A stretch of 64,000 bases of DNA, from positions 7,941 through 71,940 of the forward strand of contig JAKALT010000004.1 in assembly GCA_021813125.1 (NCBI GenBank), in the 5' to 3' direction. The notes beneath the pieces were generated by a model. That model was not told where the DNA came from, ran no database searches, and saw only the letters and a program-made list of their open reading frames with translations. Positions 4,030 to 31,084 of the stretch are shown here, in pieces (the stretch's first letter is position 1; the number at the start of each line of letters is the position of its first letter). Source of the DNA: a bacterium (lineage in GTDB: Bacteria > Patescibacteriota > Microgenomatia > Curtissbacterales > GWA2-41-24). The translations under genes and the position numbers were made by a program.

Positions 4030-4038
4030 TTATCCACA
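4030..4038 (+). promoter_or_regulatory. Perfect DnaA box (TTATCCACA) in the rpmH-dnaA intergenic region. This is the likely oriC/dnaA promoter region.
   Basis: The 9-mer exactly matches the consensus DnaA box. A one-mismatch variant, TTATCAACA, occurs at 5651-5659 in the dnaA-dnaN spacer. Confidence 0.45.
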
Positions 4039-4189: not shown

Positions 4190-5548
4190 ATGCAAAAAGA
4201 CGGACAAAAAGTCTGGAGTGATGTTTGCTCTCGGCTAAAACTACAAGTTTCTACGTCGGCTTTTAGGACCTGGTTTTCTGGGTCCTTTGTTTTGGACTCA
4301 AAGCAAGACGGCGGAAAAGTTCTTTTGGTTATTGGCCTAAAAAACAATTTCTTGAAGGAGCAGGTTGAAAACCGCTATATGGATATTGTTGCCCGGGCCA
4401 TTTCGGAGTGCGGCTACAAAGACACCTCGGCAATTTTTGTAGTCGCCAACAGAGAAGTGAAAGCCGATTCAATCGGGGCACCAATTTTTACAGGTATTGT
4501 GCCCGAGATGATTGTAAAAAATATCAGGTCTGATTCCCTTAATCCAAACCATACATTTAGTAATTTTGTCGTGGGGTATTCAAATAATCTCGCGTATTTG
4601 GCCGCTTCCAAGGTGGCCGGCAATTTAGGCGGAGCCTACAACCCCCTCATGATTTACGGCTCTGTCGGTGTCGGGAAAACCCATCTTTTGCAGGCTGTCG
4701 GGAACCAAGTGCTTTCAAGAGTGCTAGATTCTAAAGTACTTTACGTAACATCCGAAAAGTTTACAAATGATTTTTTAGAGTCGCTACGCAATAAAACACA
4801 GGCTTCTTTTAGACAAAAATACCGCAGCGTTGACCTCCTTTTGGTAGACGATATCCAATTCTTGGCCGGTAAAGAAAGCACTCAGGATGAATTTTTCCAC
4901 ACGTTTAACGAAATCTGCCTTTCGGGGAAGCAAGTCGTTTTGGCAAGCGATAGGCATCCAAAAGAGTTGGGTCGCCTTAAAGAAAGGTTAGTTAGTCGAT
5001 TTTTGGGTGGAATGACAGCTGATATCGGGTTACCTGATTTGGAAATGAGAATGGCAATTATTCGTGCAAAGTGCGCCGAGCGGGGGATAAAGCTTGACCA
5101 CGAGCTGGTCAGTTGGGTTGCCAAGGAAAGCACGGGTGGGGTAAGGGAACTTGAAGGTATGCTTACTTCAATGCTTGCCTACATGAAAATCAATGCCGGA
5201 AAAGCCACAGTTGAAGAGATTAAGTCGGCTGTTTCCAGTAATAGACCTTCTATTAAAAATCCGCCAACGCCAGGTAGGGTTATTGAGGCTGTTTGCCGAC
5301 ACTTTAAGGTTGACTCTATCTCTTTGCGCGGCTCAAGTCGAAAAGCAGCAATTGTTCTGGCAAGGCAAGTTCTAATGTACTTTTTGAGGACAGAGCTGGG
5401 TTTGCCCCTTGAGCAAATCGGTGACCTTGTTGGGGGCCGCGACCATTCTACTGTAATTCATGGAGTTGAAAAGATTTCCAGGTTGATTTCGGCAAGCCAA
5501 AAGAAGAAGGATGATATTTTGAGAATTCAGTCTTTAATCCACGCGTAA
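4190..5548 (+). CDS. dnaA: Chromosomal replication initiator DnaA
   Basis: Carries the AAA+ Walker A GSVGVGKTHLL and the Walker B region LLLVDDIQFL. The C-terminal DnaA box-binding domain reads VLARQVLMYFLRTELGLPLEQIGDLVGGRDHSTVIHG. Confidence 0.9.
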   Translation: MQKDGQKVWSDVCSRLKLQVSTSAFRTWFSGSFVLDSKQDGGKVLLVIGLKNNFLKEQVENRYMDIVARAISECGYKDTSAIFVVANREVKADSIGAPIFTGIVPEMIVKNIRSDSLNPNHTFSNFVVGYSNNLAYLAASKVAGNLGGAYNPLMIYGSVGVGKTHLLQAVGNQVLSRVLDSKVLYVTSEKFTNDFLESLRNKTQASFRQKYRSVDLLLVDDIQFLAGKESTQDEFFHTFNEICLSGKQVVLASDRHPKELGRLKERLVSRFLGGMTADIGLPDLEMRMAIIRAKCAERGIKLDHELVSWVAKESTGGVRELEGMLTSMLAYMKINAGKATVEEIKSAVSSNRPSIKNPPTPGRVIEAVCRHFKVDSISLRGSSRKAAIVLARQVLMYFLRTELGLPLEQIGDLVGGRDHSTVIHGVEKISRLISASQKKKDDILRIQSLIHA

Positions 5549-5773: not shown

Positions 5774-6913
5774 ATGAAAGTGGTAATTTCTAAAGCCGAT
5801 CTTTTAAAAACACTTATTGTTGCAAGCAGGTCAATGCTTTCTAAGGCAAACTTACCGATTCTTTCAAATATTTTGATTGACGCGTCGGGCGGAAAGCTTG
5901 AGGTGGTTACCACCAATCTTGAAACCGCCGTTAAGGCAAGCGTTAAGTGCCAGGTGGATGCAGAGGGTAAAGTGACCGTTCCGGGCAAGGTTTTTCTGGA
6001 ATACGTGTCCCAGATACCCGAAGGGGAAATTTTGCTAGAAAAGCTCGGCGAGGAAGTGGTGGTTTCAACAAAAGGCTATAATGCGCGCTTTGCGACAATG
6101 CCTTCCGAGGAGTTTCCGGCGATACCAAAAATAACAGGCGGGAAGCTTTTAAATATTGATAGCCAAAAGTTTTTAGATAGTGTTACCAAGGTTTCTTTCG
6201 CTGCGGCCCAGGATGAAAGCAGGCCTGTTCTTTCCGGTGTTTTTGTAGAATTTAACAAAAAAGGCATGATTATGGTTGCAACGGATGGTTACCGGTTAAG
6301 CTATAACGAAACTGTAGTTGAGGCCGGTGAAGGATTATCGGGTCTTGGCTTGGTGATTCCCGCGAAGTCAATTGTTGAGGCTTCAAAAATAATTGGCGAA
6401 GCAGGAGAAGAGGGCGGAAAGGTGACTGTTGTAGTAGCTGAAAATCTTAGCCAGGTGAATTTTAAAATCGGAGAGGTGGAATTTACCTCCCGGCTTATCG
6501 AAGGCGAGTTCCCGGCATGGCAAAAGATAATCCCGACAAATTTTGCAACGAAGGCGGTTGTTCCCAAGCAGGATTTCATAAATGTTGTTCGGGCCGCCTC
6601 GATTTTTGCAAGGGAATCAGGAAGCATTGTCAAGCTTAAGCTTGAGCCTGGCAAGAATGGCCAGGGTAGCTTAGGTTTGAGTGCGGCGACAGCGCAGGTA
6701 GGCTCCGGAGATGCCCAGGTTTCTACTCAGCTAGACGGCAAGGGTGGGGAGATTGCTTTTAACTTCCGATATTTGCTGGAAGCGCTTTCGGTTATTGGTG
6801 GGGAAGACGTGGTTTTTGAGATGAACGAGAGCTTGAACCCCGGTAGGATGACGTCAACTGATCCCAAGGATAAGTTTTTCCATATTGTTATGCCTGTGCG
6901 GCTGCAAGGGTAA
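5774..6913 (+). CDS. dnaN: DNA polymerase III beta sliding clamp
   Basis: 379-aa three-domain clamp in the conserved position after dnaA. The sequence is typical of DnaN (LLKTLIVASRSM..., GYRLSYNE). Confidence 0.85.
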   Translation: MKVVISKADLLKTLIVASRSMLSKANLPILSNILIDASGGKLEVVTTNLETAVKASVKCQVDAEGKVTVPGKVFLEYVSQIPEGEILLEKLGEEVVVSTKGYNARFATMPSEEFPAIPKITGGKLLNIDSQKFLDSVTKVSFAAAQDESRPVLSGVFVEFNKKGMIMVATDGYRLSYNETVVEAGEGLSGLGLVIPAKSIVEASKIIGEAGEEGGKVTVVVAENLSQVNFKIGEVEFTSRLIEGEFPAWQKIIPTNFATKAVVPKQDFINVVRAASIFARESGSIVKLKLEPGKNGQGSLGLSAATAQVGSGDAQVSTQLDGKGGEIAFNFRYLLEALSVIGGEDVVFEMNESLNPGRMTSTDPKDKFFHIVMPVRLQG

Positions 6914-6924
6914 AATAGAGTTGT

Positions 6925-7230
6925 ATGTCATTTAAACCTGTAGGCAGCTTGATTAGCACTTCTGTTGTCCGTTCTAAAACTCCCGATGCGATTTTGGCCT
7001 TAAGGGTTAGGCAAATAGCAAAAGAGGCAATAAACAGAGAATTGTTTGATATGCCAAGGGATTTGCTTGCCGCAATTAAGGTTAAATCATACAGAAAGGG
7101 TGTCCTTATGGTATCTGCTCCACAACTTTTAGCTGCAGAACTTCAGATGCGCTCTGGTGGGCTGAAGGAAACTATTAATAGAGGGCTCGGCGGAAAGATT
7201 GTTAAGGGTTTACGGTTTCGGGTTTCTTGA
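6925..7230 (+). CDS. DUF721/DciA-like small protein
   Basis: 101 aa immediately after dnaN, ending in ...IVKGLRFRVS. This C-terminal pattern is typical of DUF721 proteins, which are found next to dnaN/recF. Confidence 0.45.
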   Translation: MSFKPVGSLISTSVVRSKTPDAILALRVRQIAKEAINRELFDMPRDLLAAIKVKSYRKGVLMVSAPQLLAAELQMRSGGLKETINRGLGGKIVKGLRFRVS

Positions 7231-8218
7231 AAAACTTTTCTTGAATTGCCGGTAAGGCAAAAGTGAGATAAACTTGTGAATTATTAACCGTTGCCTGGCC
7301 GTCAAAGGCCCAAATGGGCTGAATTGGGGCACTTAGGTCTGCCGGTATAAAGTAGGCAAGGCGAGGATTGTAGGCTGTTACTTTATCAATAGAGCTTATT
7401 TGCGAAGCATAACCGCCAAGACCTTCAATTAAAATTATGGACCCCTTCCCGTTTTGAAGGGCCTGAACAGCCTCGGCATATTTTATTAAGGGATATTTGC
7501 TAAGCGGTTTGGAGTTTTCCAGAGGGCTGAAATTAAAAGAGGTCACCTGGCCAGATATATCAACAGACGCATTAGTGGCGAAGGAGTTGGTGATTGTTGG
7601 TATTTCCGAGAAGGTATAGCCAAAGTTTAGATTTATTTGATCTGCTTGGTTTGGATCTTGGGTATCAACTATATTATCGCCAACAATAGCTTCGAGTTTG
7701 CTTTCTGCTAGATTAAGTCTGCTTGTATCAAGGCCAAGGCTTGATAAGTATTTTTTGGCAATTTCAGCTGCCTGATCCTTGTTGAATTTGCCTTTTTGGG
7801 GCTTAAGATTCAGTTTTTGGTAGGATATTGAATTTTTGTATACAGACAAAACACTATTTTGGCCTGCGTATATGTTACCCTGCCCCAGGTTCACATCTTT
7901 TGTTTGTATCGGGCTCTTGTCGATTCCGAGCTTAGAAGCAAGGGCGGCGGATTCTTTGAGGAAGTCATTGTTTTGTTTAATGGCATATGTCGGCAGCAAG
8001 TAAATGATATTTTTGGGTTCATTTAGGTTCTGGGTATCCAGGCTCTTTACTTTGATTGAGAATATAGCAAGTTGGGGCGGGTTTAATAAAGGAAGCTGAC
8101 TAATTTTTTTGTTTAGGTAAATTATTGTTATTGCAAAGATTAGAATAATAACCGCTGCCGAGGCTAGGATTATGCCGGTATATTTTTTTATAAATTGAGA
8201 AATTACAGTTAAGTTCAT
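7202..8218 (-). CDS. Membrane-anchored secreted hypothetical protein; last gene of the putative T4SS-like operon
   Basis: 338 aa with an N-terminal TM anchor and a hydrophilic ectodomain. Its start overlaps the upstream M23 gene by 4 nt. Confidence 0.4.
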   Translation of the reverse strand: MNLTVISQFIKKYTGIILASAAVIILIFAITIIYLNKKISQLPLLNPPQLAIFSIKVKSLDTQNLNEPKNIIYLLPTYAIKQNNDFLKESAALASKLGIDKSPIQTKDVNLGQGNIYAGQNSVLSVYKNSISYQKLNLKPQKGKFNKDQAAEIAKKYLSSLGLDTSRLNLAESKLEAIVGDNIVDTQDPNQADQINLNFGYTFSEIPTITNSFATNASVDISGQVTSFNFSPLENSKPLSKYPLIKYAEAVQALQNGKGSIILIEGLGGYASQISSIDKVTAYNPRLAYFIPADLSAPIQPIWAFDGQATVNNSQVYLTFALPAIQEKFFKKPETVNP

Positions 8219-8847
8219 GGTGCACTAGTTATTGTTATACCGCATGGGTCTGGATCGCAATATCTGGGAACAGAAACTGGAACATGCGGAGGGTCGCTTA
8301 TGGAATATGACCTATTTTGATACCTGTTAAATTGATAATGGGTGTGGGCTCCTGTGCCCTCCGTTCCAGAAAGACCTATTTGTTGTCCGAACACTACAGT
8401 GTCGCCAACATTAACATTGGTTGCAGAAAGATGCCAATAATAAACTACGTCAAGGCCTGGGCAATTTGGGGTTACAGTTATACGTTGGTCAAAGTTATCG
8501 CCTTTATTTTTAAAATTTTCAGTTACAGTGCCAGAGACAGTTGCGTAAACGGGGGTTCCAATTGGTGTGCCGATATCTATAGCTTCAAGTTCACCGTTAC
8601 CTATGAGTACCGGGGGGTCGCCATGAGAAGTGTGACCCATTGGCCCTTGAGTTATGTAACCTGTTGTGGCCCAGCCTTGCGGGCAATTACTGCTAACCGT
8701 GCCAATTTGCACTACTGCCCTTGCCGTGCCTTGATAAGTTGTGGCGGAGGATTGAATTGGGAAAATTGCTGAAACTAAAAAGAAAAAGGCGAGAAAGAGC
8801 TTTATTTTTAAGTTTGAGAGAACCTTAATCTTTAGTTTTTTTGTCAT
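8215..8847 (-). CDS. Peptidase M23 (LytM-type) family protein
   Basis: Signal peptide present. The motifs GHTSHGD...D and GTGAHTHYQF fit the M23 HxxxD / HxH zinc-site pattern. It is translationally coupled within the putative T4SS-like operon. Confidence 0.65.
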   Translation of the reverse strand: MTKKLKIKVLSNLKIKLFLAFFFLVSAIFPIQSSATTYQGTARAVVQIGTVSSNCPQGWATTGYITQGPMGHTSHGDPPVLIGNGELEAIDIGTPIGTPVYATVSGTVTENFKNKGDNFDQRITVTPNCPGLDVVYYWHLSATNVNVGDTVVFGQQIGLSGTEGTGAHTHYQFNRYQNRSYSISDPPHVPVSVPRYCDPDPCGITITSAP

Positions 8848-9428
8848 TGTTTTTCGAAAATGTATTTACCATTCTGCTTTACGACTTTAGGAAATTCTGC
8901 AGAAGGATTTAGCCAAGACTCGGCCGTTTTTTGGTTTTGAAAGTTGTCGGCCCAGATGATGTAGAGTGCGGACGGATTAACCCCGTTTGAGGTGAGAAAA
9001 TCGTAGAGAGAGCTTGCCGTATCCCGAAAATCCTGGACTGTTAGTGGAAATTTCGGGTCTTCTTTTAGGGTAGTAAAATCAATGCCAATTATCGCGACAT
9101 GAAGTTCGTAAAGATCGGGGGTTTTAACGAAGGCCAGGTAAGAAACTTTGGTGCCGGTTGAGGTTGTAATCGTTTGGTTGTGGGGCAGCTTAGGTTTTAT
9201 AAGGTCAAGGGCATTTTTGGACAGTTGTACTTCGGGGGCGGTTGTGTCGAGTTTACCGTTTGAAACAGGTTGTTGGCTCGATGGCGGAGGGGTATATCTT
9301 GGTTTTGCCCTACGGATCGCTTGTTGGGCAACTATTGCTATTGATAAGATGAGAATTACCAGGCCGGCCAACAAGAAAAACTTGTGGCGAATGAAGGTAT
9401 TTTGGATTTTGTTTAAAGAAAATGTCAT
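8844..9428 (-). CDS. Membrane-anchored hypothetical protein (T4SS-like operon)
   Basis: 194 aa with a single N-terminal TM and a 4-nt overlap with both neighbours. Confidence 0.4.
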   Translation of the reverse strand: MTFSLNKIQNTFIRHKFFLLAGLVILILSIAIVAQQAIRRAKPRYTPPPSSQQPVSNGKLDTTAPEVQLSKNALDLIKPKLPHNQTITTSTGTKVSYLAFVKTPDLYELHVAIIGIDFTTLKEDPKFPLTVQDFRDTASSLYDFLTSNGVNPSALYIIWADNFQNQKTAESWLNPSAEFPKVVKQNGKYIFEKQ

Positions 9429-11407
9429 GGGAAAGGGCCTGCCCCTGCTTTATAATACTCTTTTGCCGCTGTGGCAGCCCCGTCCCTGTCAAATAGTTTC
9501 GGAGGGTCACAGGGTATACCATGCACAACACCATCGGCATCCGTGTATTGGCCACAATAAATTTTGTACATGGTTTCGTGGGCAGTGTCGAAATGTGTCA
9601 TGACGTAGGAATCGTCAATGCCAATAGGTGGGTCTGGCGGTGAGGGACAAGGGCCGGTATATGGTACCGGCCGACCACAATTGTGGTTTCCGCCTCCGTT
9701 ATAATATGACATTGCGCCGACCATTTCATTAAAAGTAGCCGGGGGGCGGTTTCCAAAACCAAGATAACCCATTTTAACTTTAATCAGGTCGCCGGCGTAA
9801 TATGCGGTGTCTTGAAGGCTACTGAATTTACAGCCTGAGTTCCAAGTCCCGCCATAAGCCGTACAGTCTGCCGCGCTTGTTACATCTGGCTCTATCTCCA
9901 TTCCGAGAGTTCGCCCGCTTATAAAGGAACCGTCGTCGTACCAGCTGGCTTCAACATAATCTAAGCCAACAAGTAATTCACAAGCAACCCCGCTTTTCTG
10001 GGCGCCGTATACTGCAGCTGGGACTACTTGACCAGGAGAGTTTAGCCTGTTGAGGATGGTTGGAGAAACAGCCCCCACCGAAGGTGGTATTGGATTGGGT
10101 AATAGATTGGAGAATCCTGATCCTGCCCCGCAACTGCCGAGTGCCAGCGATTCTATATCGTAGTAAACATTGAACACATTTATAATACTGGCGTTTTGAA
10201 AATCGGGCGTGTTTTGGGCTTGGGTTGTAAAGTTAAACTTAATCTGTGCATTTGCATCTATAGTTGATGGGCAACTGGGGGTTGGGGAAATTGTAAGGGG
10301 GGCGGTTGAACCATTACTTTTGACAAGTGTTGTTAAGTCTTCACAAGTAACATTTATAAGCTTTACGGATTTGGCGGTAAGAGTTACTTCGAAATTGATA
10401 GTTTTGGGCAGGTCAGAATTTTGGAGACTTGAAGGTGTTGCGGTTTTTGTGACCGTCAAATAAGCACTCCCCGGTGGCGGAATGATATTTTGGCTTTTAT
10501 CTGTTTGGGTTGTGGCAAATTTTCCTGGAGTCAGGACACCGTTGTTAATAATTGTCATGGTTGCGGCTGCCGCGACAGTAGTGCCTACCGAAATGGCTGC
10601 TATTTTGCCTACGGCTACTGTTGAACCTCCCGAGAGCATTCCGAGTAGGTTGCTGCCGACACTAAGTGCGCTGCTTAAAAGCGAGCCTCCGGCACTGGTG
10701 AGCCCGTTGACAAACCAAGATCCTAGGCTGGTGAAGGTGCTGCCAAGTCCGGACCAGAATCCACTAGTAGAGATACTGCCAATAGGTATACCCTCAATGC
10801 GGGATACTATGGGATCTATGACATAATTGCCTATAACGTAACCCGCGAGGCCGCCAAGAATAGCAAACCCCGTTATTATTATTGGGGCGGATATTACTGC
10901 GACCGGTACCAAAAGGCATCCAAAGATTGTTGCTGCACAGACTCCAACTGCAAACGAAATAAATGAGCCTGCTACGTAGGTACCAACAATGGTGCCCGCG
11001 CCCGCGCCGATGCCGGTTGAAACCAAGCCCGCAGCGCCTTGATCAAGACCGAGTGCAATTAGAGCCCCTGCTATCCCCAGTAGGGTTGCTCCACCCAGGA
11101 AACCAATTAGCGCTCCCAGAGGCGGGGCGACTATTAATGAAATGCCAAAGGTGTATGGAGCAAGCGCGATTCCAACTTGAATTCCTATATATCCACCCCA
11201 TATAGCGCCCCCGACCCCGCCTGCTGTAGCGCCAACTTTGAACCCAGAGAGTGCAACTTTACCTAGGTGGTTGGCCCATGCTAGTGCGGTTAAAAATGCG
11301 GCTGAAACTCCGAGTGTGAGGTATTTTGCCGCTTTTTTTGAAAACTCCGCTACCTGGCTTTCAGGATTTAAATTTTTAAGCTTTTTGAGGTTGTCTAAAA
11401 GAGACAT
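9425..11407 (-). CDS. Glycine-zipper-rich polytopic membrane protein with a beta-rich ectodomain and a Cys-rich C-terminal domain that may be a cell-wall hydrolase (PrgK/TcpG-like role?)
   Basis: 660 aa. About 270 aa of repeated GxxxG-type hydrophobic helices are followed by a T/S-rich region. The C-terminal domain has many Cys, His and Trp residues (DYVEASWYDDGS..., NHNCGRPVPYTGPCP). It lies immediately downstream of VirB4. Confidence 0.4.
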   Translation of the reverse strand: MSLLDNLKKLKNLNPESQVAEFSKKAAKYLTLGVSAAFLTALAWANHLGKVALSGFKVGATAGGVGGAIWGGYIGIQVGIALAPYTFGISLIVAPPLGALIGFLGGATLLGIAGALIALGLDQGAAGLVSTGIGAGAGTIVGTYVAGSFISFAVGVCAATIFGCLLVPVAVISAPIIITGFAILGGLAGYVIGNYVIDPIVSRIEGIPIGSISTSGFWSGLGSTFTSLGSWFVNGLTSAGGSLLSSALSVGSNLLGMLSGGSTVAVGKIAAISVGTTVAAAATMTIINNGVLTPGKFATTQTDKSQNIIPPPGSAYLTVTKTATPSSLQNSDLPKTINFEVTLTAKSVKLINVTCEDLTTLVKSNGSTAPLTISPTPSCPSTIDANAQIKFNFTTQAQNTPDFQNASIINVFNVYYDIESLALGSCGAGSGFSNLLPNPIPPSVGAVSPTILNRLNSPGQVVPAAVYGAQKSGVACELLVGLDYVEASWYDDGSFISGRTLGMEIEPDVTSAADCTAYGGTWNSGCKFSSLQDTAYYAGDLIKVKMGYLGFGNRPPATFNEMVGAMSYYNGGGNHNCGRPVPYTGPCPSPPDPPIGIDDSYVMTHFDTAHETMYKIYCGQYTDADGVVHGIPCDPPKLFDRDGAATAAKEYYKAGAGPFP

Positions 11408-11523
11408 GGGTTTCTATTTAAATATACTAGTATGCCTTACTCTAAAGCAAAGAGATTTTGGGTGCAGAGGATTTAAGAAGGATGAACGCTTGGGTTGGGG
11501 GTGCCGCTTGCGCAAGTTGGTGA

Positions 11524-11571
11524 AGGTCAGGCCTTTTTCCATGAGAGACCGATAGCTAAGGCCTGACCTTG
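11524..11571. repeat. Palindromic intergenic element, copy 1 (AAGGTCAGGCCTT - 22-nt loop - AAGGCCTGACCTT)
   Basis: Perfect 13-bp inverted repeat lying between the 660-aa gene and virB4. Confidence 0.7.
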
Positions 11572-11602
11572 GCTTGACTAGTGCTGTTGGTTGTGGTGCG
11601 GA

Positions 11603-13507
11603 TCACTGATTCAACGAAGTTGGGGGTGATTGGTTTCCGTCGGTGCCTTTAGTTGCTTGTTGGTTTGCGGCTGAGTCGCTTTCAAATTGCTTGACGATCT
11701 CTTCTTGCGTATGCTGTTCCATTTGTTTGAGCTCTTCGGGGTTTGTGGTTACAAGTGAATGCTCCTCTTCCGATGCCATGACACGGACTGCAACATGGTT
11801 GGGGCCGGCAAAGAATATACCTTCTCCAACGTCGGCCGCCAAAAGAAGGTGTCTTTCTCCTTCTGAAAGATAAAAAACTTCGGCAACTTTGTCGATTGCT
11901 GCAGGTGACTGTTTCAGCAAAATTTGAAATGATGAGTTGGTAACAATTGCTTTGCCGTAGTCTGTGCTTAGAAAGTCTTCGACGTCCTGAGAAATTGTAG
12001 TCAGACCAAGGTAGTATTTACGGGCTCGTTTGGCGATTGAATAAAGAAAGGTGGCGCTTTCGGGAAACTGCATCATATACCAAGCCTCGTCGACGACTAA
12101 GAGGCGTTTTCTGATGTCGTTTTTGATCCTGGTCCAGATGAAATCCAAAATAAGATACATGGCGATGGGTCTTAGCTCCTCCTCTAAACTTTTTACGGAA
12201 AAGACGGTGAAGGTGTTTCGGAGGTCGATATTCGACTGCTGGTTGAAGATGCCGATAAGTGAGCCTTTAACGAATTTTTCAATGCGGTCTGCAAGGCTTT
12301 TGGCCTCGACTTCTTCCATGCCGAGTAAAACTTTGTAAAGATCCTCCATAAGTGGCGGTTCGTTTTTCTGGGTTGATGGGTCGGGAGTTATCCCTTTTTG
12401 CCTGTAAGTGTCGACTAGGGCTTTATCCAAAACGGCATCTTCGGCAGGACTCATGTTACCCATGACGACTTTAAAAAATCCATGGAGGGAAAGAATTTTA
12501 AGGCCCAGTTCATTTTCGCCTTCTTCATAAACCCCGGAAAGGTCAAAGGGATTAATTTTAGCGGGAGAATCGAAGCTAAAGGTGATGTATTCGCCACCTA
12601 TAGCATTGCAGAGATTTTTATATTCTTCTTCCGGGTCAATGACGAGGACTTCTGTTCCAAACATCAGAGATCTTAGGGCTTCAAGTTTGACAAGGTACGA
12701 TTTCCCGGCACCGGATTTGGCAAAGATTACCGAATTGGCGTTTTCCTGGGTGAATCGGTCGAAAATGACCAGGGAGCCGTTGTGCTCGTTTATTCCATAC
12801 ATGATGCCGGTGTTGGATGTTAAAGATGAGGAAATAAACGGAAAAGTTGTGGCAAGAGATGTAGTGTCCATGTTACGGGTTATGTAGAGATGATCCGTTT
12901 GCTGGGGGAGAGTCGTTTTGAATGCATCTTCCATTTGTAATGTGGCGTGTTTGGGCACAAGAAGAAGGGCGCCCATGGTTGATTCAACCTGCTTGGTGAC
13001 CAAATCCAATTCTTCTTTAGAGTCAGCAGGGATAGTGACATAAAGACCGAATTGAAAGAATCGTTCCTGGCCTTTGACCAGCTCTTCCTGCAGGAGCTGG
13101 GCGTCTTCCAGGGCTGCCTGGACGGCCGGGTCGAGAACTTTGCCATGCTGGATGTCCGATGCTATTGTTGCCTCCATTTCGGTGACTTTGCGCTTAAGAT
13201 CGTCCAGAACTCCTTTGGCTTCAACGGGATATTGATACATGGAAATTTCCAGAGTGTGAACAAAGTTGATTAACGGTGAGAGCCAATTAGCCTGGACGTA
13301 TCTGGGATAACCAACGACAAAAAGGGTTCGAAAGTAGGTTGAGCCTATTTTAATGTAGTCGAAATCGACTTCGATTGCCGGCGGGGCAATAATGTCTTTA
13401 ACGGAGACAACGCCTTTTGAAAGAGTTTGCGACCATTGCTTTTCCTTGTCGCTCAAAAGCTCTTGAGGATTTTTGGCTTTGGGTTTTAGGATGTTGACTA
13501 AATTCAT
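11603..13507 (-). CDS. virB4: Type IV secretion VirB4/TraC/PrgJ-family ATPase
   Basis: 634 aa. The N-terminus IAPPAIEVDFDYIKIGSTYFRTLFVVGYPRYV is typical of Gram-positive VirB4 homologues. Walker A is IFAKSGAGKSYLVK and Walker B is RLLVVDEAWYMM. Confidence 0.8.
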   Translation of the reverse strand: MNLVNILKPKAKNPQELLSDKEKQWSQTLSKGVVSVKDIIAPPAIEVDFDYIKIGSTYFRTLFVVGYPRYVQANWLSPLINFVHTLEISMYQYPVEAKGVLDDLKRKVTEMEATIASDIQHGKVLDPAVQAALEDAQLLQEELVKGQERFFQFGLYVTIPADSKEELDLVTKQVESTMGALLLVPKHATLQMEDAFKTTLPQQTDHLYITRNMDTTSLATTFPFISSSLTSNTGIMYGINEHNGSLVIFDRFTQENANSVIFAKSGAGKSYLVKLEALRSLMFGTEVLVIDPEEEYKNLCNAIGGEYITFSFDSPAKINPFDLSGVYEEGENELGLKILSLHGFFKVVMGNMSPAEDAVLDKALVDTYRQKGITPDPSTQKNEPPLMEDLYKVLLGMEEVEAKSLADRIEKFVKGSLIGIFNQQSNIDLRNTFTVFSVKSLEEELRPIAMYLILDFIWTRIKNDIRKRLLVVDEAWYMMQFPESATFLYSIAKRARKYYLGLTTISQDVEDFLSTDYGKAIVTNSSFQILLKQSPAAIDKVAEVFYLSEGERHLLLAADVGEGIFFAGPNHVAVRVMASEEEHSLVTTNPEELKQMEQHTQEEIVKQFESDSAANQQATKGTDGNQSPPTSLNQ

Positions 13508-14397
13508 TGTTGTGGCGGGTTTTGGTTTGGATTAAGTTGTTGCTCTCCGCGAATAGACTGGGCAGCTTTGGCGGTTGCCGTCTTAAGGTTTTCCAAAGCC
13601 TCCATTTGGGAAGGTGCAGGTGCCCGTTGGTTAATGTTTGGAAGGGAATCTGCGTAACCCGGTTGCGGTATCGGCTGGGAGGGTTCCTGGGTATAGGTTG
13701 GTTGCGGTTGAACCGGCGCTGGAGTTGGTACTTCCACCGCCGGTTCAACCATTGGTGTTGTGTAAGATGCTGAATCCAGAATTACCCTTTGAGTGCCTGT
13801 TGGCGCAGGATTATAGATGTCATAGAAGAGTTCAATTAGATCTTTTGTGGTTAGCTGCTTGGTTGTGAGACCAAGGCGGGCCGTCTGTTTTATTAAATGT
13901 TCCCGTTTTGGGGCAAGGGCAACTTTGGCGTCTTGGACCAGCTGTTCTTTATTGTTTGTTTTTACCGGTTTTTTGATGCCAGTTAAGCCAAGCTCGATTG
14001 GAGAAAAGCTGAGGACAAGATAAAAGCGTTTATCCAAAATGGTTTTTTGCTGAACGGTGGACTGGATAAAATCCATGTATTTTTGAATTTGACGCTTAAG
14101 GTCGGGATTCTGCTGGTTTCTTTCTGCTTCAACTAGATGTTGGTAATAGGCAGTGATGTCGGCTCTTTTGGATCGTATCAGAATTTGGATTGGAAACGTC
14201 AGCGAGTTTAAAAGGGCGCCATAAGCATAGATTGTGGCATCTTGTTCAGCTTCCGAGAGAATGTCGAAATTGACTGCAGTTGTTGCAAGGACCATGGCAA
14301 CCCAGCCTGTTTTTAAGATAACGAAGTCTTCGGTTATGTCTTCGATATCCAGATGTTCCTGGGTCGAAGCCTTAATTTTTTGGGCAGCTTGAGCCAT
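13504..14397 (-). CDS. Hypothetical T4SS-associated protein with a Pro/Gln-rich C-terminus
   Basis: 297 aa, translationally coupled upstream of virB4. It has no clear TM segment and ends in a low-complexity P/Q-rich tail. Confidence 0.4.
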   Translation of the reverse strand: MAQAAQKIKASTQEHLDIEDITEDFVILKTGWVAMVLATTAVNFDILSEAEQDATIYAYGALLNSLTFPIQILIRSKRADITAYYQHLVEAERNQQNPDLKRQIQKYMDFIQSTVQQKTILDKRFYLVLSFSPIELGLTGIKKPVKTNNKEQLVQDAKVALAPKREHLIKQTARLGLTTKQLTTKDLIELFYDIYNPAPTGTQRVILDSASYTTPMVEPAVEVPTPAPVQPQPTYTQEPSQPIPQPGYADSLPNINQRAPAPSQMEALENLKTATAKAAQSIRGEQQLNPNQNPPQQ

Positions 14398-15948
14398 TTA
14401 ATTTATCCTTTCTCCCCTGACTCCAATCGGGGCAAGCACTTGACCTGTTAGGTGAAGAGAAACCGGCTTAAAGGATGCAATGTCGCTTTCGGCTTCGATT
14501 GTGTAAGTGCCGCTAGACAAAGGGGTTGCAGAAAGAAACTGGCCAAGCTTGTTGGTTTTCAGGGCCCTTACCGGTATGCCGCTTTCGTCGCGGACCACCA
14601 GAACTGCTCCTTCGATCGGACTGCCTTTATCGTCGGTTACCAGGCCGGAAAGGACATTGGGTTTGTCGGTTAAGGGAATAATTTGAGCCTGCTGGACGCT
14701 CGGTGCAGCCTGAGTTTGTTGGTCTTTATCGGATATTGAAAACTGCGAAAATTCCCGTTTTTGCTGTTTTGGTTTTTCCTCCGTTTTCGGTGCGAGTTTA
14801 GCTGGATGCTGATCTGAATATTGGGTAGTTTCTTGCTTTGGCAGCTGTTTTGGTTGGACTTGAGGCTCAGTTGTTATTTGCGGCGCTGCTTGGACTTTTT
14901 CTTCCTGAATAGGCAGGACAACGGTTGGTGAGTTGTCTTCGAAATGGTATCTCTTTTTGAGCTCGTCGGAGATGTCAAATTTGCGCTCGCCGCGAATTGG
15001 AAGTTTGGAAAGGTCAAAATTGACAGGAGGTGCAAAGTGAAGTTTTCTGACTCTGGTATTACCCACTCCGTGAACAAGTCGAAATTGACCCTCGGAAATT
15101 TTGATAGGTATAACATTATCGAGTGAATAGTTGGTTTCCGATGCCAGATGAGCACTTGGCCTTGCCAGGTCAATTATTTCCTGAGGTTTGTGGTCCAGGC
15201 GCTTTTCGATGCCGGACAAGGTGAATTGTTTAGCTTGTGGCTGTATTTTTGCCCGAGTGAGGGCAGCGGGAGTCTTTTGGGAGATTATTTGTGGTCTCGG
15301 TTCGGGTTCCAAAACCGGAGCCGTTTGGCCTTGGGGAATTTCCTGAAGCGGACCGGAAACTTGCGGAAGTGACCCCAAAAGATAGCCGGACTCTCCTTGG
15401 CCGATCGCTACATATTTATCCTCCCAGGGACTTATCGGCCAAAGAATTGCAGGAGGTAGGTTACCTTCATACTGGCCGGCTGGGAAGCCAAGCCTGTCTA
15501 GTGCCAGTTGTTCTTTAATATCTAAGGAGGTGACGTTTTCTTTTGGAAGAGAACGTAGGTAGGCAATCATTCTTTCCCTGCCTTTTTCTGTTATTTCCTG
15601 GGGAATTTTAGCCTCTTTTTGGGGAGGTTTGGTGACCACGCTCAAAAAGCCCGGAATCCTTTTTTCTTTGATCCAAATCCTTTGGGTAGGGGCTGAGACC
15701 GCTTTGATAAAGGCAAAGATCCATTTATCAAAAGGCCTTCCACCGACAGGTACAAGAGCAATAAAAGCCCCGACGATGCCAATTGTTGCGGCCAAAGGCA
15801 AACGCAAAAGGGTTGGCAGGCCGGAAAAATAAACGAGTACGGCAATTGAAAGAGGGAATATTAAAGTTATAAACTGCCGTGCAGTGAGGTTGCCGAACAG
15901 TTTAAATTCAAAAGCCGCAATATGTTGCGGGACAGGATGCTGCTCCAT
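14398..15948 (-). CDS. PrgI/VirB3-like membrane protein fused to a long C-terminal extension with a carboxypeptidase-regulatory-like beta domain
   Basis: The N-terminal roughly 100 aa (AAFEFKLFGNLTARQFITLIFPLSIAVLVY...) match the PrgI-family pattern of two TM helices. The C-terminus SGLVTDDKGSPIEGAVLVVRDESGIPVRALKTNKLGQF resembles a CarboxypepD_reg-type fold. Confidence 0.5.
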   Translation of the reverse strand: MEQHPVPQHIAAFEFKLFGNLTARQFITLIFPLSIAVLVYFSGLPTLLRLPLAATIGIVGAFIALVPVGGRPFDKWIFAFIKAVSAPTQRIWIKEKRIPGFLSVVTKPPQKEAKIPQEITEKGRERMIAYLRSLPKENVTSLDIKEQLALDRLGFPAGQYEGNLPPAILWPISPWEDKYVAIGQGESGYLLGSLPQVSGPLQEIPQGQTAPVLEPEPRPQIISQKTPAALTRAKIQPQAKQFTLSGIEKRLDHKPQEIIDLARPSAHLASETNYSLDNVIPIKISEGQFRLVHGVGNTRVRKLHFAPPVNFDLSKLPIRGERKFDISDELKKRYHFEDNSPTVVLPIQEEKVQAAPQITTEPQVQPKQLPKQETTQYSDQHPAKLAPKTEEKPKQQKREFSQFSISDKDQQTQAAPSVQQAQIIPLTDKPNVLSGLVTDDKGSPIEGAVLVVRDESGIPVRALKTNKLGQFLSATPLSSGTYTIEAESDIASFKPVSLHLTGQVLAPIGVRGERIN

Positions 15949-16155
15949 AATAAATAAAATTCGAAATTCGAAATCCTAAATTCGAAAATTCTGATTTGTT
16001 CCGTGTTTCGATTTTCGCGCTTCGGATTTTTAGCCTATGGCTACCATAGCATATGAAACAAGAGGGTAAAAGTAGCGCACTTAGCCTCGAAAGTTGAGAA
16101 TTTTCACAAAAAATTAGTGATATGGTGGGATATCTTTTGGTCAGTAGAAGTTGTT

Positions 16156-16203
16156 AAGGTCAGGCCTTTTTCTTGCAAGAGGCGTTGGTTAAGGCCAGAC
16201 TTT
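16156..16203. repeat. Palindromic intergenic element, copy 2
   Basis: AAGGTCAGGCCTT...AAGGCCAGACTTT (two mismatches), lying between the PrgI-fusion gene and the AAA-wHTH gene. Confidence 0.6.
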
Positions 16204-16219
16204 TGCCAGGGATGGCTAT

Positions 16220-17476
16220 TTACGGTTCAAATTTAAGGCCTCGGCCTTTTACGGTCTGGATGTGTACAGGCTTGGCGGGTTCGTCTTCGATTTTCTTTCT
16301 AAGCCTGAAGACCATTTGATCTATTGCCTCATCACTTATTGCTTCCGAAGACTGGGTTTGTGGCCAGACGGCCTTTATGATCTGGTCCCGGTCGAGAACT
16401 TTTTTGGGATTTTCAATTAGAAACTTGAGCAGGCGATATTCCTGAGGAGAAAGAAGTTCGGAGATTATACTTTCCCCCTTTTTAATTTCGTTGGTTTGGG
16501 CGTCAAAAACAATCTTAGTTTGGAGATTTAATTTGGTTGTCTTTATAAATTCCTCAAAGATGGGGATAGTGATTTTATTTTGGTATGAAATTAGATCTAA
16601 ATTGATTAGAGTTTCGTCTATCTGGCTTGGAGTTTTACCCTGGGTAATTGTTAAAAGAGTTTGCTGTTCGACGCCGGTTAGAAATAGCCAAATTTCGTAT
16701 AAAGCCGCTTGTATTTGGTGATTTTTTAAAAGTTGGTTGGTTGTTGGGTCAACATTTTGGCCAAGAATAAGATCTGCTGCGATTTTGGTAAGTTTAGCAT
16801 GGCCACCTGTTATTTTGGTGATTTTGGACTTTTCGTCTTCCTTAAGCTTTTTGGAAAAAACTGCCTCAATTTGGGCAAAAAGATGGTTCAGGGCTGATTT
16901 CTCAAAGATTTTTAGGTAAATGGTATTGCCGATAAAAAAGTCCCAGTACTCTTTGAGGATTTCTTCATCAACCAGACCTGACAGATCTCTTCTGGTTGCA
17001 AAAACCACCGAGAATTTGTATTTAGCGATATTTTTGAGGTTTTTTAAGGTTTGGAAAAAAAACCTGGGAAGTTGGTTTTGGAACTCGTCAAAATGGTCAA
17101 GCAGAAAGATTAAGGTTTGACCCAAATCAGATAATTTATTGACTTCCTCTGAGAGCTGCTTAGTTAAAATTAATTGATCGTCGAGGCTTTTGGGGTCTTG
17201 GTCCATGGCAACTATAAGAAACCTCAAGATTTGAGTGTCGGTTAATTCTGAGAGTTCGAGCAGATTTAGGTATACAAAACGCAGGTTTTTTTCTTTTTCG
17301 CCGAGATGAAACCTCAAAAGGCTACGGTTGTGGGCCAGAAGCCTAAGGATTGTGGCCTTGCCGGCACCGGGAATGCAGATTAGCTGGCAAAATTTGCCGG
17401 TTGTAACGCAGTCTAGAACGGACTTGATTTCTGTTTTTCTAAAATCGTCAGGAAAAGCAGACTCAAAAATTTTCAC
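16220..17476 (-). CDS. AAA+ P-loop ATPase with a C-terminal OmpR/PhoB-type winged-helix DNA-binding domain; putative regulator
   Basis: Walker A is ICIPGAGKATILRLL. The C-terminal region EYRLLKFLIENPKKVLDRDQIIKAVW...QMVFRLRKKIE...IQTVKGRGLKF matches the trans_reg_C pattern. Confidence 0.55.
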   Translation of the reverse strand: MKIFESAFPDDFRKTEIKSVLDCVTTGKFCQLICIPGAGKATILRLLAHNRSLLRFHLGEKEKNLRFVYLNLLELSELTDTQILRFLIVAMDQDPKSLDDQLILTKQLSEEVNKLSDLGQTLIFLLDHFDEFQNQLPRFFFQTLKNLKNIAKYKFSVVFATRRDLSGLVDEEILKEYWDFFIGNTIYLKIFEKSALNHLFAQIEAVFSKKLKEDEKSKITKITGGHAKLTKIAADLILGQNVDPTTNQLLKNHQIQAALYEIWLFLTGVEQQTLLTITQGKTPSQIDETLINLDLISYQNKITIPIFEEFIKTTKLNLQTKIVFDAQTNEIKKGESIISELLSPQEYRLLKFLIENPKKVLDRDQIIKAVWPQTQSSEAISDEAIDQMVFRLRKKIEDEPAKPVHIQTVKGRGLKFEP

Positions 17477-23823: not shown

Positions 23824-23871
23824 AAGGTCAGGCCTTTTTCCAAGTCATGGCTTAGGATAAGGCCTGACCTT
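23824..23871. repeat. Palindromic intergenic element, copy 3
   Basis: AAGGTCAGGCCTT...AAGGCCTGACCTT, perfect, lying upstream of the VirB6-like gene. Confidence 0.7.
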
Positions 23872-24059
23872 GACAAAGGAATCTTAACGACTGAAAATTA
23901 GTTAATAAATTAATATTTGGTGCGGGGAAGTGTAGTTTGAATCTACCACTGTGCCGCAAGGGTAAACAAGTCCCAGTACCGCATCAAATTTTACTAAATC
24001 CCGAGCAGGATAATCGTCTAAATAAACGACTTTAACCTTCTTGGGATCAAGGAGGTTTT

Positions 24060-25370: not shown

Positions 25371-25416
25371 AAGGTCAGGCCTTTGTCAAGATCAACCAAA
25401 GTTAAGGCTTGACCTT
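25371..25416. repeat. Palindromic intergenic element, copy 4, in terminator-like position between convergent genes
   Basis: AAGGTCAGGCCTT...AAGGCTTGACCTT, lying between the 423-aa gene and the metzincin gene 3' ends. Confidence 0.6.
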
Positions 25417-31032: not shown

Positions 31033-31084
31033 AGTAAGTTACTTGCGAATAAAGTCTAGAACAAAAACTCATTTTTGCGCCCTA

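Follow-up and report, generated by a model that had tools for sequence, protein, structure and literature searches.

Do the VirB4-containing genes beside dnaA in this genome belong to a conjugative element, or do they form a fixed machine of the cell, and what might such a machine carry? The window, that is, the whole 64-kb stretch of DNA analysed, holds a relaxase-less chromosomal T4SS cluster near dnaA of the kind already described in 2023-2025 for ultra-small Patescibacteria. The T4SS of this group, its linkage to the origin and its missing relaxase have been reported (Wang 2023; Quinonero-Coronel 2025) and the system has been reviewed (PMC12857230). Family matches, missing mobility genes, conserved dnaA linkage and the literature agree with the original prediction of a chromosomally fixed, non-conjugative machine. 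The locus is very probably a vertically inherited, chromosomal Patescibacteria-type T4SS from monoderm MPF_FATA conjugation machinery, in a Curtissbacteria-like host of the Microgenomatia.

The PrgI-TrsD-VirB4 core

Seven minus-strand genes span positions 15948 down to 7202, with coordinates as originally given and identical to the public gene calls for the same locus in GCA_027346405.1. The operon had been predicted to contain eight genes, but the eighth (16220-17476) lies beyond a 271-nt gap. Of the 4-nt overlaps ascribed to the whole operon, those at four junctions were confirmed (8215-8218, 8844-8847, 9425-9428 and 13504-13507), whereas the first two genes abut and the third and fourth are 195 nt apart. 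The genes are intact and translationally coupled.

VirB4, the signature motor of the T4SS, is encoded by the third gene (11603-13507, minus strand, 634 aa). Its identity, which the original prediction had left to an HMM search, is borne out by a score of 383.6 bits against NF045971 (VirB4-like conjugal transfer ATPase, CD1110 family; cut-off 325, E = 1.9e-114). Matches to Pfam P-loop_TraG (7.5e-30) and AAA_10 (3.8e-13) and to the VirB4 structure PDB 4ag5 (1.5e-51) are in agreement, and the Walker A motif AKSGAGKS is found at residue 263. The best 120 of at least 8000 scored homologues (all E ≤ 1e-10) share 79-100% identity with it, and the few named sources among these 120 are of Microgenomates type.

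The first gene of the core triplet (14398-15948, minus strand) encodes a 516-aa PrgI/VirB3-like membrane protein, identified from Pfam and transmembrane (TM) prediction. Residues 5-91 match PF12666 at 37.5 bits (cut-off 27), and two N-terminal TM helices (region 21-71) are followed by a long Pro/Gln-rich linker and an Ig-type, CarboxypepD_reg-like C-terminal domain (PF13620, 30.4 bits, under the cut-off of 32.3). This layout upholds the earlier description of a PrgI/VirB3-like fusion. PrgI homologues, in open reading frames of 205-1015 aa, lie upstream of TrsD-VirB4 in 72 of the 80 loci compared.

The 297-aa product of the second gene (13504-14397, minus strand), previously labelled as unknown, is instead TrsD-like: it matches NCBIfam NF041427 with an E-value of 8.5e-9 over model positions 9-200 of 201, under the curated cut-off. 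Further matches are to Pfam TraC_F_IV (0.0013) and, in public precomputed annotation, to PF26593 (TraC-like). The protein aligns with residues 99-234 of the Mbov_0397 VirB4 model, and the 634-aa protein aligns with residues 277-890. By these alignments, the TrsD-like protein is identified as a homologue of the N-terminal segment of full-length monoderm VirB4, and the two proteins together form a 'split VirB4' comparable to the TrsD/TrsE pair of pGO1. The TrsD-like gene, which overlaps virB4 by 4 nt and abuts the PrgI gene, is found in 74 of the 80 loci. The translationally coupled triplet encodes the membrane-anchored ATPase motor. In the proposed mechanism, PrgI and TrsD would tether VirB4, which would supply the energy to assemble a channel across the envelope and probably also a VirB2-type pilus.

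Linkage to dnaA and the question of mobility

The operon is directly flanked by dnaA, dnaN and a weak DciA/DUF721 gene, with rpmH-rnpA-yidD-yidC-jag across dnaA. The adjacency had been predicted correctly but the orientation had not: rather than starting after dnaA-dnaN-DUF721, the operon is transcribed toward dnaN and ends there, its 3' end overlapping that of the DciA-like gene by 29 nt. Placement beside the replication origin, also claimed originally, is suggested by gene order, whereas GC skew keeps the same sign throughout the 64-kb window and there is a single perfect DnaA box (4030-4038), near-matches being no more frequent than by chance.

A Pfam scan of all open reading frames of at least 300 aa other than dnaA and dnaN (which were identified by translation), and of most of those of 110-300 aa, gave no family match to VirD4/T4CP, relaxase or integrase, as had been predicted for the first two. 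A coupling protein or relaxase could be encoded elsewhere in the genome; in many Patescibacteria, VirD4-like genes are distant from virB4 (PMC12102498). The same work describes the Patescibacteria T4SS as MPF_FATA-derived, with VirB4, TrsD, PrgI and VirB2 arrays but without relaxase, and as located near dnaA/dnaN in Microgenomatia and Paceibacteria.

In the synteny check proposed with the original prediction, 34 of the 35 related loci with full 10-kb flanks have PrgI-TrsD-VirB4 no more than 10 kb from dnaA. This linkage, which occurs in four local arrangements, spans Curtiss-, Shapiro-, Beckwith-, Chisholm- and Woesebacteria and persists over class-level divergence and across candidate-phylum-level groups. 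Median identity is 67% for VirB4, against 39% for DnaA and 35% for DnaN from the same loci as VirB4, the VirB4 value being somewhat inflated by the choice of the 80 loci best by VirB4 similarity. VirB4 identity exceeds that of DnaA in all 58 of 58 loci, and the protein evolves at a lower rate than DnaA, DnaN and YidC. The dnaA linkage and the higher conservation of VirB4 than of DnaA fit a vertically inherited core machine rather than a mobile element.

This evidence largely refutes the reading of the locus as an integrated conjugative element that came to lie near dnaA by chance, whether complete or in decay. Among characterised proteins, those most closely related to VirB4, TrsD and PrgI are indeed encoded by conjugative plasmids and ICEs from Firmicutes and Mycoplasma, and the T4SS-related genes have a G+C content of 0.44-0.49, compared with 0.37-0.44 in the remaining window. 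The raised G+C may, however, stem from amino-acid composition, as Gly makes up 9-15% of the pilins and of the 660-aa and 813-aa proteins described below. In addition to the lack of matches to mobility genes, no flanking tRNA/att arrangement was found, and the genes are intact and coupled. This reading is considered highly improbable.

Envelope components within and beyond the operon

Past the hairpin described below, the core is followed by a second coupled block of four genes. The largest (9425-11407, minus strand) encodes a Gly-rich membrane protein of 660 aa (13% Gly, 12 Cys). Hydropathy places about 5-6 TM helices at residues 74-287; a beta-sandwich domain (about 316-415) comes next, and the C-terminal ectodomain (435-660) is rich in Cys. 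The polytopic character originally proposed is thus supported, but the putative lytic domain is not, as searches of Pfam, NCBIfam, PHROGs and PDB gave no match, even when a profile was used. Just eight full-length homologues were found in 5.8 billion proteins; residues 11-430 are recognisable in further Curtissbacteria-like loci, and the AlphaFold model is poor (pLDDT 44). The protein is a lineage-specific accessory and perhaps a channel or cell-wall-spanning component. It is followed by a 194-aa bitopic protein (8844-9428, minus strand; TM 10-41 by hydropathy), whose gene is translationally coupled with both neighbours. Family and PDB searches with this protein gave no match, and its homologue is found in locus L001 only.

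The 210-aa protein (8215-8847, minus strand) is a secreted or anchored M23 (LytM-type) peptidoglycan endopeptidase, in line with the original assignment. It matches Pfam Peptidase_M23 (8.7e-15), lysostaphin 4qp5 (3.7e-10) and peptidoglycan hydrolase/ShyA-type families in NCBIfam; the motif residues SH...D (AIDIG), WHLS and HTH are kept in the clade alignment, and an M23 gene is near VirB4 in 13 of the 80 loci (E ≤ 1e-5). The last gene (7202-8218, minus strand) encodes a 338-aa bitopic protein (TM 9-40). A profile search for VirB8/TcpC had been proposed originally, and this protein is not of that type: the ectodomain is confidently modelled as a YycI/YycH/YpeB-like fold with tandem PepSY/cystatin-like domains. 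A VirB8-like protein was not found. By analogy of fold and from its position next to the M23 gene, the 338-aa protein may be a partner or regulator of the M23 hydrolase, which, steered or placed by it, could open the cell wall of the epibiont itself or of the host.

The T4SS extends past the predicted region, with further components about 5-24 kb away. The first is an 813-aa protein (21266-23707, minus strand). Hydropathy and family searches indicate that it has a signal peptide and an ectodomain of some 440 aa, with about six TM helices forming the C-terminal module. The family defined by this module (~410-780) is large, with 3196 representatives at E ≤ 0.001, and is unrelated to the 660-aa protein on comparison; in 23 of the 80 loci a homologue is encoded no more than 10 kb from VirB4. 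Four of 60 family members match PF04610 (TrbL; best E = 2.4e-4), while the protein of the window itself matches neither PF04610 nor PDB. It is a weak candidate for an extended VirB6/TrbL analogue; a secure VirB6 homologue was not found, the 813-aa family giving weak TrbL matches and the 660-aa protein none.

Seven VirB2-like pilin genes (30269-37432, minus strand; 119, 134, 112, 348, 834, 309 and 454 aa) match PF18895 (T4SS_pilin), six with E-values of 5.8e-10 to 1.8e-5 and the 112-aa one with 0.012. A signal peptide and, at the C-terminus, a two-helix TM hairpin are common to all seven pilins, and the C-terminal domains align. In four of them the N-terminal part is a large ectodomain with Cys residues, up to ~750 aa long; these ectodomains might mediate host contact. 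The last gene of the pilin operon, 27 nt from the last pilin gene, encodes a metalloprotease-like membrane-anchored protein of 1601 aa (25436-30241, minus strand) with one N-terminal TM helix and 32 Cys. Its match to the zinc-metalloprotease family Reprolysin_5 (Pfam, 4.1e-5) is under the cut-off, and a homologue adjoins pilins and an 813-aa homologue in five loci.

The seven pilins, four with ectodomains suited to adhesion, would also agree with a surface filament that serves only adhesion or motility, as would the tubular structures, perhaps T4SS pili, reported at the parasite-host interface between a cultivated relative and its host (bioRxiv 10.64898/2026.06.21.733656). Type IV pili, however, reportedly serve adhesion and motility in Patescibacteria (PMC12857230), and the extreme conservation of VirB4, together with the essentiality described below, suggests a role beyond adhesion. 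A filament without other transport is regarded as unlikely.

Possible cargo and regulation

For a transporting T4SS, the functional precedent is Southlakia epibionticum, whose T4SS genes (SEML1_0006-0019) are essential for epibiotic growth and include no recognisable coupling protein or relaxase (Wang 2023, PMC10633639). This Saccharibacteria cluster is homologous to the Microgenomatia T4SS described here. By extrapolation from this one Saccharibacterium, the machine would carry macromolecules between epibiont and host cell and be required for host-dependent growth, without conjugative self-transfer. Its cargo might be imported host nucleic acids or other macromolecules, or exported effectors.

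Import of the ComB or Ced type, in which host DNA or RNA is pulled into the epibiont through the pilus or channel as a nucleotide source, is a tentative possibility. It agrees with the lack of relaxase and T4CP matches in the window and with weaker matches of VirB4 to CedB (8.8e-11) and CedD (1.8e-6), two ATPases of archaeal DNA import. Patescibacteria also do not synthesise nucleotides, and Southlakia requires its T4SS but can do without ComEC (PMC10633639, PMC11665869, PMC12102498); a Patescibacterium with possible T4SS pili is reported to feed on RNA (10.64898/2026.06.21.733656). The Ced matches, however, fall far below those to conjugative VirB4 and reflect the common ATPase fold. The cluster yielded neither a nuclease nor a component that binds nucleic acids, and the sequence gives no sign of transport direction.

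Export of effectors, hydrolases or adhesins onto or into the host is rated slightly lower. Wang 2023 offered this alternative because the coupling protein and relaxase are missing (PMC10633639), and effector systems without a T4CP exist (PMC12857230), Bordetella Ptl and Brucella VirB being effector-translocating T4SSs of this type. Large secreted or anchored proteins also adjoin the system, among them the M23 peptidase, the 1601-aa metalloprotease-like protein and the pilins with Cys-rich ectodomains, but all of these neighbours carry N-terminal signal or anchor sequences and would therefore use Sec rather than the T4SS. No cytoplasmic effector candidate with a known T4SS signal was found, and no domain could be recognised in the 1230-aa cytoplasmic neighbour (17557-21249).

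The gene beyond the 271-nt gap (16220-17476, minus strand) encodes a 418-aa protein that combines an AAA_22 (STAND-like) ATPase (Pfam, 7.7e-6; 26.7 bits, just under the 27-bit cut-off) with an OmpR/PhoB-type winged-helix domain (Trans_reg_C, 1.7e-20) and has many matches to response-regulator C-termini. It adjoins the T4SS core in seven Curtissbacteria-like loci and is a candidate regulator rather than a structural gene of the T4SS. A strong hairpin, AAGGTCAGGCCTT-N22-AAGGCCTGACCTT (11523-11570, minus strand), with perfect 13-nt arms and an RNA fold of -26.6 kcal/mol (z = -2.7), lies in the 195 nt that separate virB4 from the gene of the 660-aa protein. Five copies of this element are present, every one in an intergenic gap of the T4SS neighbourhood; whether it acts as an RNA 3'-end or stability element, an attenuator or an operator is uncertain. 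A second copy (16156-16203, minus strand) lies 20 nt past the stop codon of the regulator and upstream of the PrgI gene, and L001 carries a copy in the corresponding regulator-PrgI gap.

Core genes and operon layout beside dnaA

The 634-aa protein encoded at 11603-13507 (minus strand) had been proposed as a VirB4, and profile searches confirmed this. It scored 383.6 bits against the NCBIfam model NF045971 (CD1110-family VirB4-like conjugal transfer ATPase; curated cut-off 325), with residues 24-572 aligned to model positions 176-732 of 752. It also matched Pfam P-loop_TraG (PF19044; 7.5e-30) and the solved VirB4 domain 4ag5_A (1.5e-51 over residues 227-585), while matches to CedB/CedD models were weak. 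A Walker A motif, AKSGAGKS, lies at residue 263, and VirB4 is the only one of the T4SS-neighbourhood proteins checked for this motif with a convincing copy. On these profile and motif matches, the protein is a bona fide VirB4 of the MPF_FATA/CD1110 type.

Two genes upstream of virB4 lies the gene for the 516-aa PrgI/VirB3-like protein (14398-15948, minus strand), whose predicted fusion architecture was borne out. Its PrgI domain (PF12666, 37.5 bits; cut-off 27) contains two transmembrane (TM) helices and is followed by a long linker and a CarboxypepD_reg-like domain; the PrgI-like ORF is extended in all related loci (205-1015 aa). The intervening gene (13504-14397, minus strand; 297 aa), originally listed as an unknown, encodes a TrsD-like protein (NF041427, E 8.5e-9), with a match that falls below the curated cut-off yet covers nearly the full model. 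This gene shares a 4-nt overlap with virB4 and is also adjacent to it in related loci. On the full-length Mycoplasma ICE VirB4 model, the TrsD-like protein covers positions 99-234 and the 634-aa protein positions 277-890. Because the two products match successive parts of one model, the gene pair is colinear with a long monoderm VirB4, a likeness to TrsD/TrsE of pGO1.

Our ORF map agrees with public gene calls made independently for the same locus in GCA_027346405.1. The original prediction described a chain of eight genes joined by 4-nt start/stop overlaps. The chain comprises seven genes (7202-15948), and the eighth (16220-17476, minus strand) is set apart by a 271-nt gap; as its 418-aa product combines AAA_22 and OmpR/PhoB-type winged-helix domains, it is a candidate regulator. 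The 4-nt overlaps are present at four junctions, but the 516- and 297-aa genes abut, and between the 634- and 660-aa genes lies a 195-nt gap with a strong hairpin. The operon had also been thought to begin right after dnaA (4190-5548), dnaN (5774-6913) and a weakly matching DciA/DUF721-like gene (6925-7230; Pfam E 0.0012), all on the plus strand. Transcription runs towards dnaN, and the last operon gene and the DciA-like gene share 29 nt at their 3' ends, so the operon ends there.

The opposite flank of dnaA carries rpmH, rnpA, yidD, yidC and jag, the classical gene order of an origin region. The suggested position at a replication origin is inferred from gene order alone; in base composition it found no echo: GC skew is positive on the plus strand over the entire window, including the 4 kb left of dnaA, with no inversion at the presumed origin anywhere in positions 1-64000. 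A single perfect DnaA box is present in the window (4030-4038), where the count of near-matches does not exceed chance. Promoter and terminator consensus scans performed no better on the sequence than on shuffles. Transcription of the T4SS operon would be head-on to a fork from an origin placed upstream of dnaA.

Downstream of virB4, four minus-strand genes lead to the end of the operon. The first (9425-11407) encodes a Gly-rich polytopic protein of 660 aa that comprises a beta-sandwich domain and, at its C-terminus, a Cys-rich one. It has eight full-length homologues, and neither the single sequence nor a profile matched any family in Pfam, NCBIfam, PHROGs or PDB; its TM helices come without a VirB6/TrbL match. 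The lytic domain attributed to this protein did not materialize, as no SLT, CHAP or lysozyme match was obtained in the same four databases. The segments 'VEASW' and 'SYYNGGG' bear a faint resemblance by eye to SLT motifs, which is not evidence, and an AlphaFold model built from the 8-sequence alignment (pLDDT 44) was too poor for a fold search.

The 210-aa M23 peptidase (8215-8847), correctly recognized from the start (Pfam Peptidase_M23, 55.1 bits; cut-off 28.7), takes the hydrolase role instead. The motifs D (AIDIG), H (WHLS) and HxH (HTH) are retained. The first zinc ligand, a His, probably comes from the 'SH' of the clade-conserved 'ITQGPxGxxSH'; given the unusual spacing of this 'SH', activity of the peptidase is likely but not certain.

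The remaining two products are bitopic. The 194-aa protein (8844-9428) has no family or PDB match in searches of Pfam, NCBIfam and PDB. For the ectodomain tested for a VirB8/TcpC relationship, that of the 338-aa protein (7202-8218), the VirB8 NTF2-like fold was not the best structural match; its predicted fold is YycI/YpeB-like. In Bacillus, YycI and YycH regulate WalK and YpeB is the partner of SleB, and ypeB adjoins sleB, the spore cortex lytic enzyme gene. The 338-aa protein shares this hydrolase-adjacent gene position, but it is no more than 13-16% identical to the Bacillus proteins, a WalK-type kinase and SleB are both missing here, and its neighbour is an M23 peptidase within a T4SS operon. 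A functional link between the 338-aa protein and the M23 hydrolase is one that we only infer.

The block between VirB4 and dnaN (660-aa, 194-aa, M23 and 338-aa proteins) varies among the 80 related loci compared. Loci in which virB4 is immediately followed by dnaN, such as those of Beckwith- and Chisholmbacteria, lack the block, which is therefore a lineage-specific accessory module.

Conservation and chromosomal fixation of the locus

VirB4 has at least 8000 homologues at E<=1e-10. The best 120 of these are 79-100% identical, and the few source-named ones among them are Curtissbacteria, Roizmanbacteria, Microgenomates or Patescibacteria. Scanning of one genome per species yielded 80 loci from Curtiss-, Shapiro-, Beckwith-, Chisholm- and Woesebacteria-type MAGs. 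PrgI-TrsD-VirB4 was found in 72-74 of the 80, with PrgI upstream of TrsD-VirB4 in 72/80 of these Microgenomatia-type loci.

The suggested synteny with dnaA was also widespread. The gene lies within 10 kb in 58/80 loci, and in 34 of the 35 with both full flanks. It occurs near VirB4 in four different orientations or arrangements. This synteny argues for orthology. VirB4 has a median identity of 67% to its window counterpart, against 50% for TrsD, 39% for DnaA, 35% for DnaN and 36% for YidC, and VirB4 identity exceeds DnaA identity in 58/58 loci; selecting the loci by VirB4 similarity introduces some bias here, but the gap is still large. By this measure, VirB4 is under stronger constraint than the replication initiator.

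Most of the 80 locus titles are those of Microgenomates-type or Patescibacteria MAGs, and many name other taxa. TPA MAGs titled 'uncultured Gammaproteobacteria' or 'Pseudomonadales' account for L005, L011-L018, L020, L022-L028 and others, and a few further titles name Clostridia, Bathyarchaeia, Nevskiaceae or Limisphaerales. All of these oddly titled loci carry PrgI-TrsD-VirB4 beside dnaN-dnaA-yidC, the Microgenomatia type. Their titles are likely wrong, or the contigs mis-binned.

The claim that the 64 kb lack a VirD4 or relaxase gene was upheld by a Pfam scan covering most ORFs of 110-300 aa and all ORFs >=300 aa except dnaA and dnaN. Among the window ORFs scanned, there was no match to any MOB relaxase family, to a VirD4/TcpA-type coupling protein (T4SS-DNA_transf, TraG-D_C or TrwB), or to an integrase or recombinase; the nearest tRNAs lie at 46-50 kb. 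An integrated conjugative element, the alternative reading, would be expected to have att or tRNA boundaries. None was found, the dnaA-adjacent position is conserved across the class, and this reading was rejected on synteny and conservation. Conjugation is unlikely, because local relaxase and coupling-protein (T4CP) matches are absent and the locus is chromosomally fixed. The combination of dnaA linkage, VirB4 conservation and missing local relaxase/T4CP agrees with the original view of a chromosomally fixed, T4SS-derived machine instead of a conjugative element, and the evidence fits a vertically inherited core machine rather than a mobile one.

Pilins, a VirB6 candidate and a recurrent hairpin

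Three further elements take the T4SS past the region first delimited. The first, an 813-aa protein (21266-23707, minus strand), starts with a signal peptide and ends in a module of about six TM helices, with an ectodomain between them. Its TM module belongs to a large family (3196 representatives at E<=0.001), and homologues lie within 10 kb of VirB4 in 23/80 related loci. Four of 60 family members match PF04610 TrbL (best E 2.4e-4), the window protein itself not being among them, and profiles of 18 and 60 sequences gave no match to solved VirB6 structures or elsewhere in PDB. The family is a weak candidate for the divergent VirB6 of Microgenomatia. No homology was found between the 813-aa and 660-aa polytopic proteins (hhalign probability 0.1), and a search for a VirB2-like hairpin within the 813-aa family returned non-significant matches only.

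The second element is an array of seven VirB2-like pilin genes (30269-37432, minus strand; PF18895 matches), 17-24 kb from virB4 and within about 20 genes of it. Four of the seven (348, 834, 309 and 454 aa; 31423-37432, minus strand) encode fusions in which a signal peptide and a Cys-containing ectodomain of ~230-750 aa precede the C-terminal pilin hairpin. No Pfam match was found for these ectodomains. If the fusions polymerise like VirB2 or TraA, their ectodomains would decorate the filament surface, and they are candidate host-specific adhesins. The third element, at the end of the pilin operon, is a membrane-anchored, Cys-rich protein of 1601 aa with a weak Reprolysin-like match.

Divergent from the AAA+wHTH regulator gene is a gene for a 1230-aa protein with no predicted TM helix (17557-21249, plus strand). 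It was considered as a hidden relaxase or coupling protein and rejected: a Walker A motif is missing, and searches of Pfam, NCBIfam and PDB gave nothing; a PHROGs match to a family of unknown function was marginal (0.0088). Six Curtissbacteria-like loci keep the gene in this place, flanked by the 813-aa gene and the T4SS core, and its product could be a T4SS-associated component or substrate. The gene for the 813-aa VirB6 candidate is separated from the metalloprotease/pilin operon by an AdoCbl-II (cobalamin) riboswitch (23908-23989, plus strand; 41.8 bits, cut-off 36.5) and, downstream of it, a gene for a Cys-rich protein (24060-25331, plus strand; 423 aa, 10 Cys) that has no Pfam match and no predicted TM helix.

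A hairpin, AAGGTCAGGCCTT-N~20-AAGGCCTGACCTT, recurs in five copies (11523-11570, 16156-16203, 23824-23871, 25371-25416 and 36001-36045), its 3' arm being invariant on the minus strand. It occupies 5 of the 9 intergenic gaps (>=40 nt) of the T4SS neighbourhood (7.2-37.6 kb) versus 0/15 elsewhere (Fisher p 0.003). Predicted folding energies are -25 to -29 kcal/mol in 4/5 copies, and all five lack a T-run behind them. One copy sits in a divergent promoter region, the other four immediately 3' of genes. L001 is the one locus of the 80 related ones with an exact arm, again in the gap between the regulator and PrgI genes. Possible roles are those of an operator, a REP-like element, or a terminator or RNA-stabilising hairpin.

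Relation to known systems and proposed mechanism

The finding is correct in substance and already published. Quinonero-Coronel et al. 2025 (PMC12102498) catalogue 2,474 virB4 genes and describe a Patescibacteria-specific VirB4 clade related to MPF_FATA. According to that survey, TrsD, PrgI/VirB3 and VirB2 arrays are widespread in Patescibacteria, relaxases are almost absent and T4CP homologues are mostly distant from virB4. It further reports that VirB6 and VirB8 are hardly detectable in Microgenomatia, that dnaA/dnaN, rnpA and rpmH are enriched beside virB4 in Microgenomatia and Paceibacteria, and that only 22.6% of Microgenomatia VirB3 homologues lie near virB4. The window locus shares an MPF_FATA VirB4 with adjacent TrsD and PrgI/VirB3, VirB2-like arrays, dnaA/dnaN and rnpA/rpmH as neighbours, the lack of a nearby relaxase or T4CP and elusive VirB6/VirB8; nothing essential separates it from the Microgenomatia type as set out there. 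It is a clean, complete Microgenomatia example of a catalogued system and does not open the substrate question.

Several small additions leave the published picture unchanged: a PrgI-like gene that regularly precedes TrsD-virB4 in the Microgenomatia loci compared here, a divergent family as candidate VirB6, the predicted YycI/YpeB-like fold of the last operon gene as a putative partner for the M23 hydrolase, and the markedly higher conservation of VirB4 than of DnaA, a gap not found quantified in the accessible text of PMC12102498. The pilin-ectodomain fusions are a modest addition.

In Southlakia epibionticum, the homologous cluster SEML1_0006-0019 is essential for epibiotic growth by Tn-seq; its pilins include essential ones, and neither a coupling protein nor a relaxase can be recognised in it (Wang et al. 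2023, PMC10633639). Both loci are chromosomal, with a Gram-positive-like subunit set and a pilin array, and to judge from its tags 0006-0019, the Southlakia cluster lies close to the annotated start of the chromosome. Southlakia belongs to a different class (Saccharimonadia), and its VirB6 is recognisable. In the window, a distance of 17-24 kb separates the pilin genes from virB4, and large ectodomains are present on four of the pilins. Essentiality was established there by Tn-seq, while the window locus is known from sequence alone.

The MPF_FATA comparators are pGO1/pSK41 Trs (TrsC-TrsD-TrsE), pCF10 Prg/Pcf, C. difficile CD1110-type transposons and the Mycoplasma ICE. They share the order VirB3-like, TrsD, VirB4, a VirB4 that passes the CD1110-family model, a cell-wall hydrolase encoded alongside, and a monoderm architecture without VirB7/9/10. 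According to PMC12102498, these systems are mobile-element borne, with a relaxase and a VirD4-type coupling protein but without VirB2 pilins. The window locus, in contrast, has no relaxase or T4CP match in 64 kb, is fixed beside dnaA and has VirB2-like pilins; its PrgI bears a C-terminal extension of ~400 aa, and its hydrolase is M23-only, not SLT+CHAP. Helicobacter pylori ComB (a diderm VirB2-10 set) and crenarchaeal Ced (CedA/CedB with type IV pili) are T4SS-related, relaxase-free systems of import rather than export. Orthology with them does not reach beyond the ATPase fold, and the window locus is known only from its genes.

By homology, VirB4 hexamers would be tethered to the membrane by PrgI and TrsD. 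Channel formation might perhaps fall to one of the polytopic proteins, the 813-aa family or the 660-aa protein. The VirB2-like pilins may polymerise to a filament or conduit, some with host-binding ectodomains, and the M23 peptidase with its YycI/YpeB-like partner may open peptidoglycan. Macromolecules could then be exchanged with the host cell in either direction. Reviews regard the substrate as unknown and discuss host uptake or effector delivery (PMC12857230, PMC11665869), and a 2026 preprint describes possible T4SS pili at the parasite-host interface (10.64898/2026.06.21.733656). One specific version is a housekeeping import organelle in place of a secretion device: a VirB4/TrsD/PrgI-driven VirB2-type pilus with interchangeable host-binding ectodomains, an M23 enzyme gated by the YycI/YpeB-like partner and breaching the host wall, host nucleic acids or macromolecules pulled in, co-regulated genes marked by the hairpin, and the 813-aa family as VirB6. 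Taken as a whole, we consider this version rather improbable. The cargo of the essential, relaxase-less T4SS matters for the Patescibacteria, a group that lives on other cells and possibly accounts for a quarter of bacterial diversity.

Other features of the window were also recorded. A ComFC-like protein with a double zinc ribbon and a phosphoribosyltransferase domain (44700-45371, plus strand) is encoded next to tmRNA (44226-44643) and smpB, within the same 64 kb as the T4SS; a comF-T4SS association is mentioned for the ABY1 class in PMC12102498. A 252-aa LAGLIDADG homing-endonuclease ORF (49690-50448, plus strand; PF14528, 2.7e-8) runs into tRNA-Ser(GGA) (50348-50435) beside the tRNA cluster, and is possibly a free-standing or intron-associated homing endonuclease. 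ARAGORN overlooked a tRNA-Asn(GUU) gene (59005-59592, plus strand; exons 59005-59038 and 59555-59592), which is interrupted at anticodon-loop position 35/36 by a 516-nt group I intron (59039-59554; Rfam RF00028, 66.7 bits over 59322-59547) containing a 118-aa ORF (59062-59418) with a weak HNH motif. Patescibacteria tRNA-Asn 35/36 introns, some with HNH endonucleases, are reported to escape standard tools (PMC13011429), and the intron found here is exactly of the class described.
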